From a virus, in IMG/VR virus record IMGVR_UViG_3300045988_105534: DNA of 64,000 nt, one strand, 5' to 3'. Both the position numbers and the translations under genes were made by a program. This document shows, piece by piece, positions 19,732 through 33,495 of the stretch; positions within the stretch are counted from its first letter, which is position 1; every line of letters begins with the position of its first letter. The notes beneath the pieces were generated by a model. The model saw only the letters and a program-made list of their open reading frames with translations. It had not been told where the DNA came from and did not search any database.

Positions 19732-20682
19732 ATGGCAGCAACACAGTTTGAAGTTATTGAAACAGTAAACAATAATAACGCAGAAGAATCTGAAACAAAG
19801 ATTAAAAGACGCAAGGACGGAAGTCCTAAATGGACTCGATCTAACAAACGGAAAGGCGTATCATCTTTAGTGTATCCGATTAAGAACAGAGAAAAATTTG
19901 CAGCCTTTAATGCATATTTTAGAGATCAGATTGATAAATCATATACAGAGTACAAACGATATGTAGCTGCTAGAAATAATCTTTTGGTTGCAGTTGGAAA
20001 TAATACAGCGTATCGTATTTCTGATATTGTTAGACTTAAATGGGGTGATTTATTAGACGATAAGACTCGTAAGCAGGAAAAGAAAACAAAGAAATTCAGA
20101 ACTGTATACTTTAACGATTTGGTAACTGAAGCAGTGGATATTTTCTTTGAAGCTGTTGCAGGAACTAAATATGATGTCAAGATTGATGGCAAAGTGCCAA
20201 TGGATGATTATGTTTTCGGAACATGTAAGTCTGGATCAGGGCATATGACTGAAGCAAATGCTTTGGATTTTGTTAAAAAAGGTGCTAAGGCAGTTGGAAT
20301 TGAGGATAACATTGGTACACATACATTGCGAAAAAACTTTGTATACTGGACACTTGTTGATCATAAGGATGATCAGAATGTATTGTATACACTTATGAGA
20401 TTACTGAATCATAGTAGTCCTGCAATGACGTTTTTATATGCTACAATTACAGAAGAGGAAACACATGTATTGTTCGATGATATTGCTCAGACGTATAAGG
20501 ATATTATCAGCGGAGTATTTAACGGATTAAAGGAAAATGTTATTAATGTGAGTTATGATAGAGTAATAGAGATTATCAAGTGTGCTTATGAGACAGGGAA
20601 AGATGATGCAGATAAAGATGATGGAGTACATGAGGATAATATGCAAGCATTAAAAGAATTACTGGAAGGAGTTATTTTATGA
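19732..20682 (+). CDS. Tyrosine site-specific recombinase (small integrase/Xer-like)
   Basis: Arg box AYRISDIVRLKWGDL; HxxR in GTHTLRKNFVYW; His-Tyr box LLNHSSPAMTFLYAT. Confidence 0.7.
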   Translation: MAATQFEVIETVNNNNAEESETKIKRRKDGSPKWTRSNKRKGVSSLVYPIKNREKFAAFNAYFRDQIDKSYTEYKRYVAARNNLLVAVGNNTAYRISDIVRLKWGDLLDDKTRKQEKKTKKFRTVYFNDLVTEAVDIFFEAVAGTKYDVKIDGKVPMDDYVFGTCKSGSGHMTEANALDFVKKGAKAVGIEDNIGTHTLRKNFVYWTLVDHKDDQNVLYTLMRLLNHSSPAMTFLYATITEEETHVLFDDIAQTYKDIISGVFNGLKENVINVSYDRVIEIIKCAYETGKDDADKDDGVHEDNMQALKELLEGVIL

Positions 20683-22367: not shown

Positions 22368-22381
22368 AAATGGAGAATATT

Positions 22382-23398
22382 ATGAATAATAAAGAATTGA
22401 TACAAAATTATATAGATTCTTACGTATCAGAATCACGTCGCCCAACATGGAATTGGTTATTAGATTCTGATATTGCGGACGACAATGAATCTGGGTTAAC
22501 GTATGCACCAGGTACAATCCAAGAGGCTATATTATCAGATACTAGAGGTAAAAAAACCAAAAGTATGAATTCTATTAAAAAAAGATATGACCAGCTTGTT
22601 AAACTATATACTTATGCATATGAACAAAATTACATTAAATATAATCCATTTGTTAATGATAAATTTATAAACTTGCAATTAGCAGTTGATATATATTTTT
22701 CAAATAGAGTTAACGTTAATTATGTTACACCAGATAAAATAAATGCGTTTATTTCGAATCTGATGTCGTGCAATGCATCAGCCGATACCAAATTGAATAC
22801 TAGATTTCACATTGTGAGTTTATATAATGGGATAAATGGAAAGGAGTTAAGAAATCTAAAATTCTCAGATATTAATCAAAATGATTTGACAATTTTTGGG
22901 AAACCAGTCTCCAAAGATTTTATCGAGACATTGAATGAATATAAATTGAAAATGGGAGATACGAATATATATGATGATTTTGTATTAATACCACGAAAAA
23001 AATGTAATAATATAGAAGAATATCAAGCAGAGCAAAAGAGGATATATAATAATGTGCAGTCTCAATTAGAATTAACTGGTAACACTTTATCTTATGAGAA
23101 ATTGACAACCATTGATGTTATTAATTCTGGTTTTATACAATATTTAAAATCTAAAATGGATATCAAGGCAATTGCAGATTTATATTATATTAAATCAAAA
23201 GAAGGAATCGCACGATCTTTAATCGCACGTCAATTTAGTGAAATTGCAATTGAATTTTATTATAATTATTATATATCATATAGATTAAAAAAGAAACAAT
23301 TTAGTGATCGTCAAACTGTAATTGGTAAAACTATTGGTTATCTATATAAAGATGAGGACTATAAGAATTATCGTGTACATCAAATTATGACAGAATAA
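22382..23398 (+). CDS. Hypothetical protein (338 aa)
   Basis: Long ORF with a weak Shine-Dalgarno (GGAGAA); no motif recognised. Confidence 0.5.
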   Translation: MNNKELIQNYIDSYVSESRRPTWNWLLDSDIADDNESGLTYAPGTIQEAILSDTRGKKTKSMNSIKKRYDQLVKLYTYAYEQNYIKYNPFVNDKFINLQLAVDIYFSNRVNVNYVTPDKINAFISNLMSCNASADTKLNTRFHIVSLYNGINGKELRNLKFSDINQNDLTIFGKPVSKDFIETLNEYKLKMGDTNIYDDFVLIPRKKCNNIEEYQAEQKRIYNNVQSQLELTGNTLSYEKLTTIDVINSGFIQYLKSKMDIKAIADLYYIKSKEGIARSLIARQFSEIAIEFYYNYYISYRLKKKQFSDRQTVIGKTIGYLYKDEDYKNYRVHQIMTE

Positions 23399-26870: not shown

Positions 26871-28940
26871 ATGTGTACACCAATGAATGAAAACTGGAGT
26901 AACTTTTTAAGCAAATTGTCAGAGCATTTAAATAAAATGCTCGACTATGTAGAGAAAAACAATTCTACATTGTATGAAACCGACATTGATAAGGATGAAC
27001 TTTGGGAAGTATATCTGAGTAGTTTTCCTGAAGGAACCAATAAGATGTATCGCAAGCGACGAGAATATGATTGTGGGCATTGCCGAAACTTCATTAAAAC
27101 AATCGGTGGAGCTGTGGCAATTGTTGATGGCAAGATTCATACGATCTGGGAGATTGATACCGATGACGTAGTATTTCAGCCAGTAGTTGATGCTTTACGA
27201 ACATATGTAGAATCAAAACCGATCAAAGACATTTGGAGACATTTTACAAATACAGTTGGTACAAAAACGACAAATGAGTATACAGAAGATAAGCAGATTA
27301 TCAAATGGACTCATATGTATACACCGATTCCAGAGAGATTACTGGAAAAGAAATCTGATATTCCTACAGCGAAAGCAAAAGTGAGGGATCGAAAGAATGT
27401 GTTCAAAAGATCACTTGATGAAATCACAGAAGAAGCTGTTGATACAGTGTTAGAGCTGATCGCTTCAAATACTCTTTACAGAGGACAGGAATGGGAAAGA
27501 GTATTAAAAGATTTTAGAAAATATCAGCGAGAATACAACGGTTTGTCTGATGTAGAAAAAGATACATACACATGGACAAAAGCCATGACGATCGGAGATG
27601 TAATTGGTCGTATTAGAAACCATAGTATCGGTACATTACTTGTGAATATCAGCGAAGGTATGGATTTAGATAATGCAGTAAAAGCTTATGAAAATGTTGT
27701 AGCTCCTGCAAATTACAAACGACCAAAGGCAATTTTTACAAAGAAAATGCTTGAGGATGCAAAGAAAACTGTAACCGATTTAGGATATATGGATTCATTA
27801 CAGCGTAGATTTGCAAGACTTGATGATATTACAGTAAACAATATTCTGTTTTGTAATCGTGATGCAGCACCACGTATTCAGGGTGGCTTAGATATTTTTG
27901 ACGAGATGAGCAAGGAAGTCGCTGTAAATCCTAAGAAATTTTCTAAAGTAGAAGAGATCAGTGCAGAGAAATTTGTATCAGATGTTCTACCAACAGCAAA
28001 AGAATTAGAAGTTCTGTTTGAAAATCGTCACAAGAAGAACATGGTCTCACTGATCGCACCTGTAAACAAAGATGCTAAGAATATGATGAAGTGGAGCAAT
28101 CCTTTCAGTTGGGTGTACTCAGGAAATATGACAGATAGTGAAATGAAAGAACGAGTTAAGAACGCAGGCGGAGCAGTTGATGGAGTCTTAAGATTTTCAA
28201 TTCAGTGGAACGCAGGAAAAGATTGGAATAGGGATGATTTTGATGCACATTGTAAAACACCTTGTCACCATATTTTCTTTGGACAGATGCTTGATCATAA
28301 AACACGAGGCAGACTTGATGTTGATGTGATTAATCCAGTAAAAGGCGAACCTGCCGTAGAGAATATCACATGGGCAGACAAAACCCAGATGGTTGATGGA
28401 GATTATGAATTTTTCGTACGCAATTATTGCCATAACAACGGTACATCAGGATTTACAGCAGAGATTGAGTTTGATGGTCAGATTTATGAATTTGAATACG
28501 ACAAACCTTTAAAACAGGGACAGAACGTACCAGTGGCTACAGTTACATTAAAAGATGGAGTGTTCACAATCAAAGAGAAACTTCCATCAACAACATCTTC
28601 AAGAGAAATCTGGGGCATCAATACAAATCAGTTTGTGCCAGTAACAGTAATGTGTTATTCCCCTAACTATTGGGACGAACAGACAGGTATTGGACATAAA
28701 CATTATCTGTTTATGTTAAACGGATGTGTAAATGATGATACTCCAAATGGATTTTTCAATGAGTTTTTGAAGCAGGAATTAGTACAGCACAAGAGAGTAT
28801 TCGAGGCTTTAGGAAGTAAGATGCATGTCGCAGATGATCCAAACCAGTTATCAGGAATTGGTTTCAGTTCTACAAAACGAGATGGTGTGATCGTCAAAGT
28901 CAAAGGTGCAACAGAAAGAGTTCTTAAAATTAAATTTTAA
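26871..28940 (+). CDS. Hypothetical large protein (689 aa)
   Basis: AAAGGAGA Shine-Dalgarno; YDCGHCRNF Cys motif; no confident family. Confidence 0.6.
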   Translation: MCTPMNENWSNFLSKLSEHLNKMLDYVEKNNSTLYETDIDKDELWEVYLSSFPEGTNKMYRKRREYDCGHCRNFIKTIGGAVAIVDGKIHTIWEIDTDDVVFQPVVDALRTYVESKPIKDIWRHFTNTVGTKTTNEYTEDKQIIKWTHMYTPIPERLLEKKSDIPTAKAKVRDRKNVFKRSLDEITEEAVDTVLELIASNTLYRGQEWERVLKDFRKYQREYNGLSDVEKDTYTWTKAMTIGDVIGRIRNHSIGTLLVNISEGMDLDNAVKAYENVVAPANYKRPKAIFTKKMLEDAKKTVTDLGYMDSLQRRFARLDDITVNNILFCNRDAAPRIQGGLDIFDEMSKEVAVNPKKFSKVEEISAEKFVSDVLPTAKELEVLFENRHKKNMVSLIAPVNKDAKNMMKWSNPFSWVYSGNMTDSEMKERVKNAGGAVDGVLRFSIQWNAGKDWNRDDFDAHCKTPCHHIFFGQMLDHKTRGRLDVDVINPVKGEPAVENITWADKTQMVDGDYEFFVRNYCHNNGTSGFTAEIEFDGQIYEFEYDKPLKQGQNVPVATVTLKDGVFTIKEKLPSTTSSREIWGINTNQFVPVTVMCYSPNYWDEQTGIGHKHYLFMLNGCVNDDTPNGFFNEFLKQELVQHKRVFEALGSKMHVADDPNQLSGIGFSSTKRDGVIVKVKGATERVLKIKF

Positions 28941-29874: not shown

Positions 29875-29904
29875 TCAAACAGTAATTTAAAGGAAGGAGA
29901 GAAA

Positions 29905-30867
29905 ATGAGACAGATTACAGACACACATACAGGAGAAATTATCTCCGATACAGATTTAACATTAGAATACTTATTCGTTGGTGATTATGGCAAGAAAAAC
30001 AACATTAAGGCAGATTTTCTTGGGTATGATAAACGAATTGAAAAAGTTGAACATAAACCAGTTGATATTAGAGAAAAATTAGTTGTGACTGTTTCGTCAC
30101 AGAAAGGTTGCCCGATGCATTGCAATTTCTGTGATTGCCCTAAACTTGGATTTAAAGGAAACGCATCGTTGCCAGAGTTAATGATGGAGATCACTTCTGG
30201 AATTGCTTTATCAGGAATCAGACATGGAGAACGATTAAATGTACATTATGCAAGAATGGGAGAGCCTACATTTAATCAAAATGTAATTGCTTCGGCTAAA
30301 CAGATTGCACATATGTTAGCAGATCCAGACAGTGATATACATTTCAACACATATCATCCAGTAATTTCTACAATGATGCCAAAGGCAAATAATAATTTAA
30401 AAGAATTTTTACATAAATGGGTTAAAACTGGATTTGAATATGGTGAAGAAGATGGCTTTGGTCTTCAGTTCTCTATCAATACTCTTAATGAAGAACAAAG
30501 AAATGAAATGTTTCGAGGATGTTCATTATCTTTAACAGAGATCGGAGGCATTATTGATTGGTTACCAATGCCAAAGAAGCGTAAGTATACATTGAATTTT
30601 GCTGTTACATCCAAAAGTAATTTAGACGTAGATTTGATGAACAAGTATTTCGATAAGGAAAAATGCATTGTCAAGATTACTCCTATCCATGAAACAGTTG
30701 AAGCAGTTGACGAAGGATATGAGATTGTAACAGATTTTGATGTATATGAAAAATTTGAACAACCACTTGTAAAAGACGGTTGGGATGTAATTGTATTTGT
30801 TCCATCGAAAGAAGAAGACGCAGATAGAATTACATGTGGAAATTCATTAATTGCATTAGGAAATTAA
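29905..30867 (+). CDS. Radical SAM enzyme, RlmN/Cfr-like (putative RNA or DNA C-methylating enzyme)
   Basis: VSSQKGCPMHCNFCDC is a CX3CX2C cluster in RlmN-style VSSQ.GC context. RMGEPT is a glycine-rich SAM motif. C-terminal ITCGNSL resembles the RlmN AACGQL catalytic Cys motif. Confidence 0.6.
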   Translation: MRQITDTHTGEIISDTDLTLEYLFVGDYGKKNNIKADFLGYDKRIEKVEHKPVDIREKLVVTVSSQKGCPMHCNFCDCPKLGFKGNASLPELMMEITSGIALSGIRHGERLNVHYARMGEPTFNQNVIASAKQIAHMLADPDSDIHFNTYHPVISTMMPKANNNLKEFLHKWVKTGFEYGEEDGFGLQFSINTLNEEQRNEMFRGCSLSLTEIGGIIDWLPMPKKRKYTLNFAVTSKSNLDVDLMNKYFDKEKCIVKITPIHETVEAVDEGYEIVTDFDVYEKFEQPLVKDGWDVIVFVPSKEEDADRITCGNSLIALGN

Positions 30868-30887: not shown

Positions 30888-31220
30888 ATGGAAATTAAAG
30901 CAAAATGGACAGGTCGTGGTTTTGCACATTGCGTTGGAGAATGGAAGCTTTATGTTGATGGCAAAGATGTTACAGATAAGATTCCAGAAGACTTACGCAC
31001 AGAATCTATGAATACGTATAAGAGATATGAACGATGGTACTTTAAGGGTTGGGACGTAGAATGGGAATCATATTATGACGGACTAAAGCAAGATGAATGG
31101 ATTGAGTCTAATAAGTATTGGTTAGATGAAATTACAACAGACATTGATGTCCAGCGTCAGATCTTCAAAGCAATCAATGAAGAGGATTTTCGCACTAATT
31201 CTTGTGGCGGATGTATTTAG
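30888..31220 (+). CDS. Hypothetical protein (110 aa)
   Basis: GAAGAGGA Shine-Dalgarno. Confidence 0.55.
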   Translation: MEIKAKWTGRGFAHCVGEWKLYVDGKDVTDKIPEDLRTESMNTYKRYERWYFKGWDVEWESYYDGLKQDEWIESNKYWLDEITTDIDVQRQIFKAINEEDFRTNSCGGCI

Positions 31221-31285: not shown

Positions 31286-32746
31286 ATGATTGAAGTAATT
31301 GGAACAGTGGTACCAGTGGTTATTGCGGTAGGTGGCGTAGGAGCTATTATCGGTAGCGGTTATGTCAAAGCAAGTCCAGATAAAGCTTATATTATTTCTG
31401 GACTTAGAAAGACACCTAAGACATTAATTGGTAAGGCAGGGTTAAAAATCCCATTCTTTGAAAAAGCAGATCATCTTAATCTTGAGTTAATTCCAATTGA
31501 TGTTAAGACATCAAGTTCTGTGCCTACAGCAGATTATATCAATATCAATGTAGATGCAGCGGTCAATGTAAAGGTTAGCAGTAATCCAGAAAGATTAAAA
31601 CTTGCAGCAGAAAACTTCTTAAATAAGCCAGTAGGCGATATTGGACAGGTCGCAAGAGAAGTCCTTGAAGGTAATATGCGAGAGATCGTTGGAAAGATGA
31701 GCCTCGAAGAAATGGTTTCTGATCGTCAGAAATTTGCACAGCTTGTTACAGAAAATGCGAAGCCAGACCTTGCTGCAATGGGACTAGATATCATCAGTTT
31801 TAATGTGCAGAATTTTATGGATGATAATGATGTTATTGAAAATCTTGGTGTAGATAATGTTGTTAAAATTCAGAAGAAGGCTGCAATTTCCAGAGCTGAA
31901 AGCGAAAGAGATATTGAAAAAGCAAAAGCAATGGCTGAAAAAGAAGCGAATGATGCAAGGGTTGAGTCAGAAACAGCGATCGCAGAAAAGAATAACAATC
32001 TGGAAATTAAAAAATCTGAACTTGAGAAGATTTCAAAAGCAAAGAAGGCTGAGGCAGATGCAGCATACAAGATCCAGGAAGAAAAATCACGTAAAGAAAT
32101 TGAAATTGTAACTGCGGATGCTAATATTATGCGGCAGGAAAAAGAAATTGAACTGAAACGTAAAGACGTTGAGGTAACAGAGCAGACATTAGATGCACAG
32201 ATCAAGAAACAGGCAGAGGCTGAAAGATATGCCTCTCAGCAGAAAGCAGATGCAGATTTATATAAGAGACAGAAAGAGTCAGAAGCTAATAAATATGCTA
32301 AAGAAAAAGAAGCTGAATCTACAAAATATGCTATGGAGCAGGAAGCTGAAGGTATTCGTGCAAAGGGTGTAGCAGAAGCCGAGGCAATCAAAGCTAAAGG
32401 TATTGCTGAAGCAGAAGCAATCGAAAAGAAAGCAGAAGCCATGAAACAGATGGGTAAAGCATCTATTGTAGAAATGATGTGTCAGATGTTCCCAGAGGCA
32501 GTTAAAAATGCAGCCGCACCATTAGGAAATGTAGGAAGTATCACTATGTATGGAGAAGGAAACACAACAAAATTAACAAAAGATATTATGAATGTTGTGA
32601 ATCAGGTATCAGATGGTGTTAAAGGATCTACAGGTGTTGATCTTGCAAAGATGTTAAAAGATTTTGTTTCTGAAGATAACGAAGTAGAATCTACAGATAA
32701 TGTTGGTCAGCCAGAAGTATATTCAGACGATTATCGTGAGTTCTAA
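31286..32746 (+). CDS. Flotillin-like SPFH/Band-7 family membrane protein
   Basis: N-terminal transmembrane helix, then an SPFH domain, then a long E/A-rich coiled coil (AEAEAIKAKGIAEAEAIEKKAEA) and a C-terminal flotillin tail. 486 aa. Confidence 0.85.
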   Translation: MIEVIGTVVPVVIAVGGVGAIIGSGYVKASPDKAYIISGLRKTPKTLIGKAGLKIPFFEKADHLNLELIPIDVKTSSSVPTADYININVDAAVNVKVSSNPERLKLAAENFLNKPVGDIGQVAREVLEGNMREIVGKMSLEEMVSDRQKFAQLVTENAKPDLAAMGLDIISFNVQNFMDDNDVIENLGVDNVVKIQKKAAISRAESERDIEKAKAMAEKEANDARVESETAIAEKNNNLEIKKSELEKISKAKKAEADAAYKIQEEKSRKEIEIVTADANIMRQEKEIELKRKDVEVTEQTLDAQIKKQAEAERYASQQKADADLYKRQKESEANKYAKEKEAESTKYAMEQEAEGIRAKGVAEAEAIKAKGIAEAEAIEKKAEAMKQMGKASIVEMMCQMFPEAVKNAAAPLGNVGSITMYGEGNTTKLTKDIMNVVNQVSDGVKGSTGVDLAKMLKDFVSEDNEVESTDNVGQPEVYSDDYREF

Positions 32747-32760
32747 TAGGAGAAATTATT

Positions 32761-33495
32761 ATGACAATTATTATTATTTGTGTAATTATAGCGATTATCG
32801 CATATTTGCAATTTACTAAAAATGGAAAACAGATTAAAAATGTGGCATCTGGAACAGTTACAGAGAAAATCAAAGAAAATGCAATGACTCCAGAGGGAGC
32901 AAGAGCCAGATATAATACTGCAATTAAAGACAAGCAGGACTTCTACCAGAAAACAATGGGTACATACACAATGGTAGCTGGTCGATTGGCAACAATGGAA
33001 GATGACCTCAAAGAAACAAAAGAAGAAATTTCTAAAACCGAGGTAATGATCAACCAGTATCTTGATAACAATGATGATAAAAAAGCAATGTATTATGCTC
33101 AAAAATTAGCCACGTTAAAGGCACAAAAATCAGTGTACGAAAAGAAGATCCCAGAGTTGCAAGCAACAAAAGATAAGCAAGAAGAAATTAAAAACCAAGC
33201 ATATGATCAGCTTATTAAACTAAAAGGCGAAAAAGACACTGTAGTTCTCCAGATGGATGCAGATCAGCAGATTGCAGAATTGCAGAAAAATTTAGATCAA
33301 TACAATAGTTCAAATGCTGCTCAGGAAGGTTTGGAAGAGGTTCGAGAAGGAGCAAAGAAACTTAGCGAACAAGCCAAAGGCGTTGCTATTGCGTATGAAT
33401 CTAGTGCAGAAACATTGGATTATCATATGGAACAAGAAGAGCGACAGCAAGAAGCTAAAGCCATATTAGATCAGATGAAAAATGCTCGCAAATAA
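32761..33495 (+). CDS. Membrane-anchored coiled-coil protein, PspA/IM30-like (tentative)
   Basis: N-terminal transmembrane helix followed by about 200 aa of heptad-rich coiled coil. Adjacent to the flotillin gene, as in PspA-SPFH operons. Weak assignment. Confidence 0.35.
   Translation: MTIIIICVIIAIIAYLQFTKNGKQIKNVASGTVTEKIKENAMTPEGARARYNTAIKDKQDFYQKTMGTYTMVAGRLATMEDDLKETKEEISKTEVMINQYLDNNDDKKAMYYAQKLATLKAQKSVYEKKIPELQATKDKQEEIKNQAYDQLIKLKGEKDTVVLQMDADQQIAELQKNLDQYNSSNAAQEGLEEVREGAKKLSEQAKGVAIAYESSAETLDYHMEQEERQQEAKAILDQMKNARK

Follow-up and report, generated by a model that had tools for sequence, protein, structure and literature searches.

A divergent phage-encoded radical SAM enzyme of the RlmN/Cfr clade and the ties of its family to NAD salvage

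The virus record IMGVR_UViG_3300045988_105534 of the IMG/VR collection comprises 64,000 nucleotides of phage DNA, here called the window, and encodes a radical S-adenosylmethionine (SAM) enzyme, the rSAM protein, that belongs to the RlmN/Cfr structural clade. The enzyme keeps the methyl-carrying cysteine of this clade, but the resolving cysteine (C118 in RlmN) and the RNA-binding N-terminal domain have been lost. By genomic context and by gene fusion, its family is tied to the enzymes of nicotinamide adenine dinucleotide (NAD) salvage, to isochorismatase-type hydrolases, to a vitamin-type transporter component and to a nucleosidase. Because the parts needed for work on RNA are gone and relatives are found in NAD salvage operons, a small NAD-related substrate is probable. 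To our knowledge, every characterized member of the clade, that is, of the class-A methyl synthases, has an RNA substrate and modifies one adenine in rRNA or tRNA. The reading that we favor, with a probability of about 0.45, is that the gene represents a distinct class-A radical SAM family that acts on a small molecule of NAD salvage and not on rRNA or tRNA.

Kinship with RlmN and Cfr, and departures from it

The open reading frame (ORF) and the three motifs on which a preliminary description of the window had based an assignment to the RlmN/Cfr family (the CX3CX2C segment, RMGEPT at residues 117-122 and ITCGNSL at residues 309-315) are all present as quoted, and the resemblance is true homology rather than a coincidence of motifs. 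A phmmer search of the PDB matches E. coli RlmN at an E-value of ~1e-6 over residues 40-134, BLASTP pairs the rSAM protein with RlmN of E. coli MG1655 at an E-value of 6e-12, and a profile of 44 family members aligns by hhalign to RlmN residues 109-363 with 98.8% probability (E 1e-16); identity to RlmN is ~17%. An AlphaFold2 model built from the family alignment reaches a pLDDT of 92.2 and a pTM of 0.91, and the top ten Foldseek matches of this model are all RlmN, nine from E. coli and one from Sphaerobacter. The segment VSSQKGCPMHCNFCDC, residues 63-78, contains the cluster cysteines C69, C73 and C76, which are invariant in the family alignments A2, A3 and A4 and sit in a partial TIM-barrel radical SAM core that is nearest to that of RlmN/Cfr. 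The profile alignment pairs EEDADRITCGN of the query with GDDIDAACGQ of RlmN, which makes Cys311 the equivalent of the methyl-carrying Cys355; the likening of ITCGNSL to the RlmN AACGQL segment was therefore apt. By sequence and by fold the closest known relatives are RlmN and Cfr, and the protein does not cluster with QueE or NrdG, the other subfamilies that had been considered, but forms its own family beside RlmN/Cfr.

This family is widespread in phages. The rSAM protein matches PHROG 24834, a phage protein family with no assigned function, over its full length (residues 17-316 aligned to positions 21-322 of the 336-position profile, E 3.3e-80). Clustering of the family leaves 6,887 members at the 90% level and 567 clusters at the level of 50% identity. 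Copies that are 99% identical occur on IMG/VR viral contigs of 54-165 kb, and a megablast search with 20 kb against the annotated phage collection returned no near-identical phage. Our literature search found no description of the family or of phage RlmN-like enzymes.

The departures from RlmN and Cfr were surveyed residue by residue in 81 cluster representatives, 166 group-a genes from the fetched loci and 77 genes of group b, the distant members of the GSNCGQ type that are discussed below. A cysteine at the C118 position is found in none of the 81 representatives, none of the 166 group-a genes and none of the 77 group-b genes, that is, in none of 324 sequences; in the rSAM protein itself this position, seven residues ahead of the cluster motif, is held by Thr62. 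The C-terminal CG[QN] loop, in contrast, is kept in most full-length members (32 of 42 representatives, 164 of 165 group-a and 75 of 77 group-b genes). An aspartate that directly follows the third cluster cysteine is specific to the family and nearly invariant, being present in 72 of 81 representatives, 165 of 166 group-a genes and all 77 of group b. Beyond the cysteines of the cluster and of the C-terminal loop, the family alignments hold no conserved cysteine. The cysteine pair proposed at the outset is thus incomplete: the counterpart of C355 is in place, whereas that of C118 is absent, so that the expectation under which the RlmN/Cfr assignment was to be abandoned is half borne out.

The N-terminal accessory domain is also missing, since alignments to RlmN begin only at RlmN residue 101-109 and the N-terminus of the query is only 58 residues long and mostly beta-strand. 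This short extension substitutes for an RlmN N-terminal region of ~100 residues that includes the helical accessory domain, which in RlmN structures makes contact with RNA. The rSAM protein is acidic, with an isoelectric point (pI) of 5.28 and a net charge of -13, and the median pI of group a is 5.6, against 8.2 for the RlmN core. With the RlmN model TIGR00048 it scores 35.5 bits against a cut-off of 290 bits, and with the curated Cfr models 21-24 bits against cut-offs of 468-550, the matches being confined to residues 47-134 in each case. The Pfam Radical_SAM match is sub-threshold only, and in NCBIfam all 32 aligned members gave weak RlmN/Cfr matches only, with no model dedicated to the family.

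These features bear on the possibility that the enzyme is a trimmed RNA methylase of the RlmN/Cfr type, acting on an adenine of host or phage tRNA or rRNA and perhaps serving RNA repair or protection from anticodon nucleases. RlmN and Cfr are its nearest homologs in sequence and fold and the methyl-carrier cysteine is conserved, and relatives that are 83-89% identical (P0015, P0036, P0055 and P0079) are named '23S rRNA (adenine2503-C2)-methyltransferase' by the pipeline of the Joint Genome Institute (JGI). According to the titles of PDB entries 5hr6 and 5hr7, however, the C118A form of RlmN was isolated in a covalent crosslink to tRNA. C118 is accordingly important for RlmN, and its equivalent is lacking throughout the survey. 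The absent accessory domain, the acidity, the scores far under the curated cut-offs and the NAD salvage context also speak against the rRNA or tRNA methylase that had been proposed, an account that we regard as unlikely. Since three defining features of RlmN/Cfr (C118, the accessory domain and a score above the curated cut-offs) are wanting, the JGI name is probably an over-annotation that is spreading in databases. The further suggestion that the gene might confer Cfr-type resistance to phenicols, lincosamides, oxazolidinones, pleuromutilins and streptogramin A (PhLOPSA) loses its footing on the low scores with the Cfr models and on the missing C118 equivalent and N-terminal domain. Cfr is more distant from the rSAM protein than is RlmN, and there is no sign of ribosome targeting.

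Fusions and operons that link the family to NAD salvage

The functional weight of our argument is placed on cellular operons and gene fusions, which are set above adjacency in phages. Members of the family that are 33-40% identical are fused to an N-terminal S-component of an energy-coupling factor (ECF) transporter, and most of these fusions also carry a C-terminal PNP_UDP_1 domain; other members have a C-terminal domain of the isochorismatase family. We take the PNP_UDP_1 domain (DMESAG...KAVSD) to resemble the nucleosidases of 5'-methylthioadenosine (MTA), S-adenosylhomocysteine (SAH) and 5'-deoxyadenosine. Such nucleosidases are the usual scavengers of the by-products of radical SAM enzymes.

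The fused transporter domain matches Pfam QueT, just over the threshold, and this raised the thought of preQ1 salvage in the manner of the queuine lyase QueL. QueL is itself a radical SAM enzyme encoded beside an ECF component and a nucleosidase (PMC11477304), and the likeness to it (PDB 6p78) lies in a radical SAM enzyme that works on a salvaged small heterocycle in the company of these two partners. The family and fold are not those of 6p78, and neither Q-salvage neighbors nor a preQ1 riboswitch were found, so identity with QueL is effectively refuted.

A scan of cellular organisms, with one genome per species and the group-a alignment as query, yielded 79 loci of 40-76% identity with strikingly mixed taxonomic labels, as is expected of a mobile or phage-borne gene. 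Neighboring ORFs were clustered and their identities checked by Pfam. In 11 of these cellular loci the rSAM homolog, 40-57% identical to the phage protein, lies within an operon whose other genes are NAD genes only, and the metagenome-assembled genomes (MAGs) concerned are assigned to several phyla. Six MAGs of Alphaproteobacteria/'Enterousia' combine it with NAPRTase (PncB), a nicotinamidase-like isochorismatase (PncA), NadE, DUF5662 and NrtR. Two low-GC loci (L034 and L050) encode PncA, NAPRTase, NadE, the rSAM homolog, a NadD-type adenylyltransferase, CinA/PncC, NrtR and NAD kinase, and comparable NAD gene sets occur in bins of Patescibacteria, Peregrinibacteria and Woesearchaeota. The homologs are thus embedded in operons of the NrtR-governed Preiss-Handler and pyridine-nucleotide-cycle kind (PncA, PncB, NadD, NadE, PncC and NadK). 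We know of no radical SAM step in NAD salvage, and in the literature searched no radical SAM enzyme was linked to NrtR regulons, nicotinamidase, NARP pathways, Thoeris or NADase counter-defense.

The distant group-b members, which come from sediment and groundwater metagenomes (L178-L257), differ from the rest in their context, which is very tight. Of their 80 loci, 32 encode an EntB-like isochorismatase and 62 a TrxR-like flavoprotein that has no conserved CxxC and whose gene ends ~3 bp before the start of the rSAM gene; together with the radical SAM enzyme these two make up a cassette of three genes. Since it also accompanies group b, the isochorismatase-superfamily hydrolase is a partner common to the whole family.

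DUF5662, a protein of ~165 residues with an HD-like 'HDLSKF' motif, is present at loci where a NadD-type enzyme is absent (L016, L021, L025, L027, L031, L054 and L117) and absent where one is encoded (L034, L050 and L075); on one phage contig it lies between the isochorismatase and NAPRTase genes. It may supply the nicotinate mononucleotide adenylyltransferase step or some other NAD function.

Phage relatives, too, are found near NAD genes. Gene order was inspected in the Vibrio phages 496E54-1 and PS17B-2, where a Prs-like gene and then a gene of the Nampt family come immediately before the homolog; five further Vibrio phage records contain near-identical matches. IMG/VR copies that are 64-83% identical to the window protein have NAD genes no further than 8 kb away. 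In L117 these encode isochorismatase, DUF5662, NAPRTase and NadE, in L126 and L127 they form a Prs-like and Nampt pair, and in L125, L133 and L165-L168 there is an isochorismatase gene. An isochorismatase gene also lies ~60 bp downstream of the homolog on L008, a MAG contig binned as Methanobrevibacter. In all, NAD genes occur in the flanks of 24 of 174 loci. A Prs-then-Nampt architecture defines NARP1, a phage pathway of NAD+ reconstitution by Adps and Namat (Osterman et al., bioRxiv 10.1101/2024.02.11.579819), and NARP3 consists of PnuC and NadR. The rSAM homologs lie beside NARP1-like pairs, the window protein is neither Adps nor Namat, and no NARP genes were detected in the window; NARP1 as described does not include a radical SAM gene, and the NARP papers found make no mention of one. 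In PS17B-2 a gene annotated as 'phosphatase' (L260, 716-1156) immediately precedes the Prs-Nampt-rSAM series. Phage phosphatases are reported in a 2026 preprint to counter NAD-depleting defense of the RES type, and phosphatase, Prs, Nampt and rSAM may in PS17B-2 form a single counter-defense block.

The phage gene and its variable surroundings

The rSAM gene starts with an ATG at 29905, is preceded by a strong Shine-Dalgarno sequence and lies among densely packed genes on the plus strand (Table 1). The phage is a large one, and the window encodes a DnaB-like helicase, primase, RecJ-like exonuclease, DNA polymerase, sliding clamp and Dda-like helicase. The window has a GC content of ~33%, a GC skew that is positive in every 2-kb bin (0.12-0.36) and nearly all of its sizeable ORFs on the plus strand. 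It further encodes at least three Bro-N/ANT antirepressors, tyrosine-recombinase-like proteins (19732-20682 and 22370-23398), a metallophosphoesterase and, from the annotation of L088, a PemK-like toxin.

Table 1. Features of the rSAM gene and of its neighbors in the window
Feature	Coordinates	Strand	Remarks
rSAM ORF	29905..30867	+	320 aa; belongs to PHROG 24834; divergent radical SAM enzyme of class A (RlmN/Cfr clade)
Shine-Dalgarno GGAAGGAG	29892..29899	+	last base 5 nt 5' of the ATG; read from the sequence
N-terminal 58 residues	29905..30078	+	short beta-strand extension (DSSP of the model)
Thr62	30088..30090	+	occupies the RlmN Cys118 position (alignments)
CX3CX2C (C69, C73, C76)	30109..30132	+	[4Fe-4S]/SAM cluster motif
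Asp77	30133..30135	+	immediately after third cluster Cys; family-specific, near-invariant; Ser in RlmN (FCST)
RMGEP, residues 117-121	30253..30267	+	GxGEP-type SAM-binding motif; RlmN counterpart GMGEP
Cys311-Gly312-Asn313	30835..30843	+	C-terminal loop; aligned with RlmN Cys355-Gly-Gln (hhalign); invariant in A2/A3
DUF8224 protein	26871-28940		689 aa; PHROG 1735 (E 4e-261); Pfam DUF8224 via the 99%-identical L088 copy
110-aa ORF	30888-31220		21 bp downstream of rSAM; PHROG 20678; C-terminus ...NSCGGCI
SPFH/flotillin	31286-32746		downstream of rSAM
PspA-like gene	32761-33495		downstream of SPFH/flotillin

Upstream of the gene lie two small PHROG families without assigned function and, at a distance of ~1 kb, the DUF8224 protein, which has a CxxC-containing N-terminal region and is conserved in near-identical phages only. 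The 110-residue ORF that follows the gene was considered as a substrate of the kind found in ribosomally synthesized and post-translationally modified peptides, or as a small partner protein. It is conserved next to the gene in near-identical phages only and is not kept beside the homologs of other phage lineages, so it is probably neither substrate nor partner. No conserved small partner emerged elsewhere, the small ORFs that flank homologs in five phages being mutually unrelated.

Across 88 phage loci no neighbor is conserved outside near-identical phages, and the content of the downstream slot changes. In the window the slot is taken up by SPFH/flotillin and PspA-like genes. The 99%-identical copy L088 (11376-15494) has vWA-TerF and TerD there together with a P-type cation ATPase, and the 83%-identical copies L089 and L092 (9009-13272) have RlaP with a CCA-adding enzyme and two further genes (308-320 aa). 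In view of these unconserved neighbors and the variable slot, the phage gene behaves as an accessory gene that stands on its own within a cargo hotspot. A functional tie to the membrane- and ion-stress cargo itself (SPFH/flotillin, PspA-like, TerC/TerD, vWA-TerF and P-type ATPase proteins), for example through the supply of a metabolite, has the recurrence of such genes in its favor: they are present in the window and in L088, TerC and two TerD genes lie no more than 2 kb from the homolog in Yersinia phage P778, the crAss-like Kehishuvirus has SPFH one gene upstream, and SPFH homologs lie near the 57%-identical copies in L170, L172 and L174. The neighbors nevertheless vary by lineage and swap at the same slot, as in a cargo hotspot and not an operon; neither fusions nor a conserved order are seen, and the conserved cellular partners are NAD genes rather than Ter or SPFH. 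Such a tie is therefore improbable.

The RNA methylase reading draws support from the same regions, for RlaP and the CCA-adding enzyme follow the gene in ~11 loci, and distant homologs adjoin tRNA arrays in Stenotrophomonas phage BUCTxx99 and Pectobacterium phage Arno162. The window itself contains no tRNA genes, and fusions with a transporter, a nucleosidase and an isochorismatase, like the NAD operons, would make no sense for an enzyme that modifies RNA.

Three phage homologs differ from the window protein in their own ways. The homolog of BUCTxx99 (OR529408; L002, 4914-5873) is 22% identical, keeps both cysteines (VICCSTQSGC and GGGCGQL), is without the family aspartate and is located within the phage tRNA gene array; it may be a truer RNA enzyme of the RlmN/Cfr type than the window protein. 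Its label, 'prohibitin family protein', looks like an annotation error. The homologs of the crAss-like Kehishuvirus 'tikkala' (L005, 3938-4726; 262 aa) and of the Felix-O1-like phage Arno162 (L003, 4845-5720; 291 aa) end before the C-terminal cysteine loop and are without both RlmN cysteines, and hence use a different mechanism or are degenerate.

It had also been suggested that the enzyme might have been recruited to hypermodify phage DNA by adding a carbon-bound methyl group to adenine. Kinship with adenine C-methylases fits this idea, as do the orphan DNA methylases that share these accessory regions with the gene, such as those beside RlaP and the CCA-adding enzyme in the 83%-identical copies. 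The acidity and the loss of C118 tell against DNA as they do against RNA, the gene also occurs in the chromosomal NAD operons of cellular organisms, and no partner gene for DNA modification is conserved. With no specific support for it, DNA modification is very improbable.

A possible chemistry on a pyridine nucleotide

In RlmN and Cfr the loop cysteine is first methylated by SAM and is then activated by a 5'-deoxyadenosyl radical. In an enzyme that acts on a small NAD-salvage molecule, the substrate would be a metabolite of the pyridine-nucleotide pathway that is small and heteroaromatic, and Cys311 would serve as the methyl carrier or as a radical relay. As in RlmN, a first SAM would methylate Cys311, and the 5'-deoxyadenosyl radical derived from a second SAM would convert the methyl-Cys311 into a thiomethylene radical. 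This radical could add to an electron-poor sp2 carbon beside a ring nitrogen, in either the nicotinamide/nicotinate or the adenine moiety; the attacked carbon would be chemically analogous to C2 or C8 of adenine. The adduct would have to be released without C118, and Asp77 acting as a base, or an external reductant, are candidates for this step. In phages the gene would act as solo accessory cargo, carried in early or variable regions, that cooperates with NAD salvage enzymes of the host or of the phage, and the benefit may be an NAD pool that is sustained or altered during infection, for example against NAD-depleting defenses.

Several observations weigh against a role in NAD salvage. Some 85% of the phage copies have no NAD gene nearby, and none was found in the 64-kb window with nine seed proteins, among which NadD, NadR, NMNAT and PnuC types were not represented. 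The other recurrent phage neighbors are the SPFH/PspA/Ter membrane-stress genes and, at the ~11 loci mentioned, the RNA-repair-like module of RlaP and CCA-adding enzyme, and tRNA arrays stand beside the distant homologs of BUCTxx99 and Arno162. The RNA substrates of all characterized clade members count against it as well. The cellular loci are in many cases MAG bins, in which the taxonomic label and contamination by phage are uncertain. The NAD operons by themselves cover every step of canonical salvage, so that no missing step points to an added reaction. A riboswitch search of 12 loci, which included a monocistronic fusion gene and NAD operons, returned tRNAs and a T-box only, and no evidence for a ligand. 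Finally, the chemistry set out above is drawn from homology.

A serious alternative, although we think it rather doubtful, keeps the NAD-related small molecule and dispenses with methylation: Cys311 would donate a hydrogen atom or relay a radical in a reaction of the lyase or repair type, for instance one in which usable nicotinamide, nicotinate or NAD is regenerated under anoxic conditions from a pyridine compound that is damaged or conjugated. The evidence from NAD context is shared with the methyl synthase proposed above. Loss of the resolving cysteine implies that the RlmN catalytic cycle is not fully retained, the partner in group b is a flavoprotein reductase, and the habitats are mostly anoxic (gut, rumen and sediment). 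On the other side, the two known methyl synthases have the very same conserved CG[QN] loop, and the data indicate no candidate substrate for such a reaction. The MTA/SAH nucleosidase-like fusion would suit an enzyme with SAH as well as 5'-deoxyadenosine among its products, yet it fits any radical SAM enzyme.

The favored small-molecule enzyme of NAD salvage can be given a more particular, and speculative, form. An RlmN/Cfr-type enzyme could have been recruited to edit a pyridine nucleotide or base, for example by C-methylation of the nicotinamide or nicotinate ring or of the adenine of NAD or ADP-ribose. Such a new NAD step might provide phages and reduced-genome symbionts with a usable NAD pool or with a NADase-resistant analogue that withstands NAD-depleting immunity; this version is unlikely as it stands.

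For the annotation of phage genomes, the automatic name '23S rRNA (adenine2503-C2)-methyltransferase' is probably wrong for genes of this kind, and the worry that phages spread Cfr-type multidrug resistance through them is unsupported. If the favored reading is true, the family would be the first small-molecule branch of the class-A radical SAM methyl synthase clade, and it would point to an unrecognized reaction of NAD metabolism, which is now at the heart of the contest between phages and bacterial immune systems (NARP1-3).
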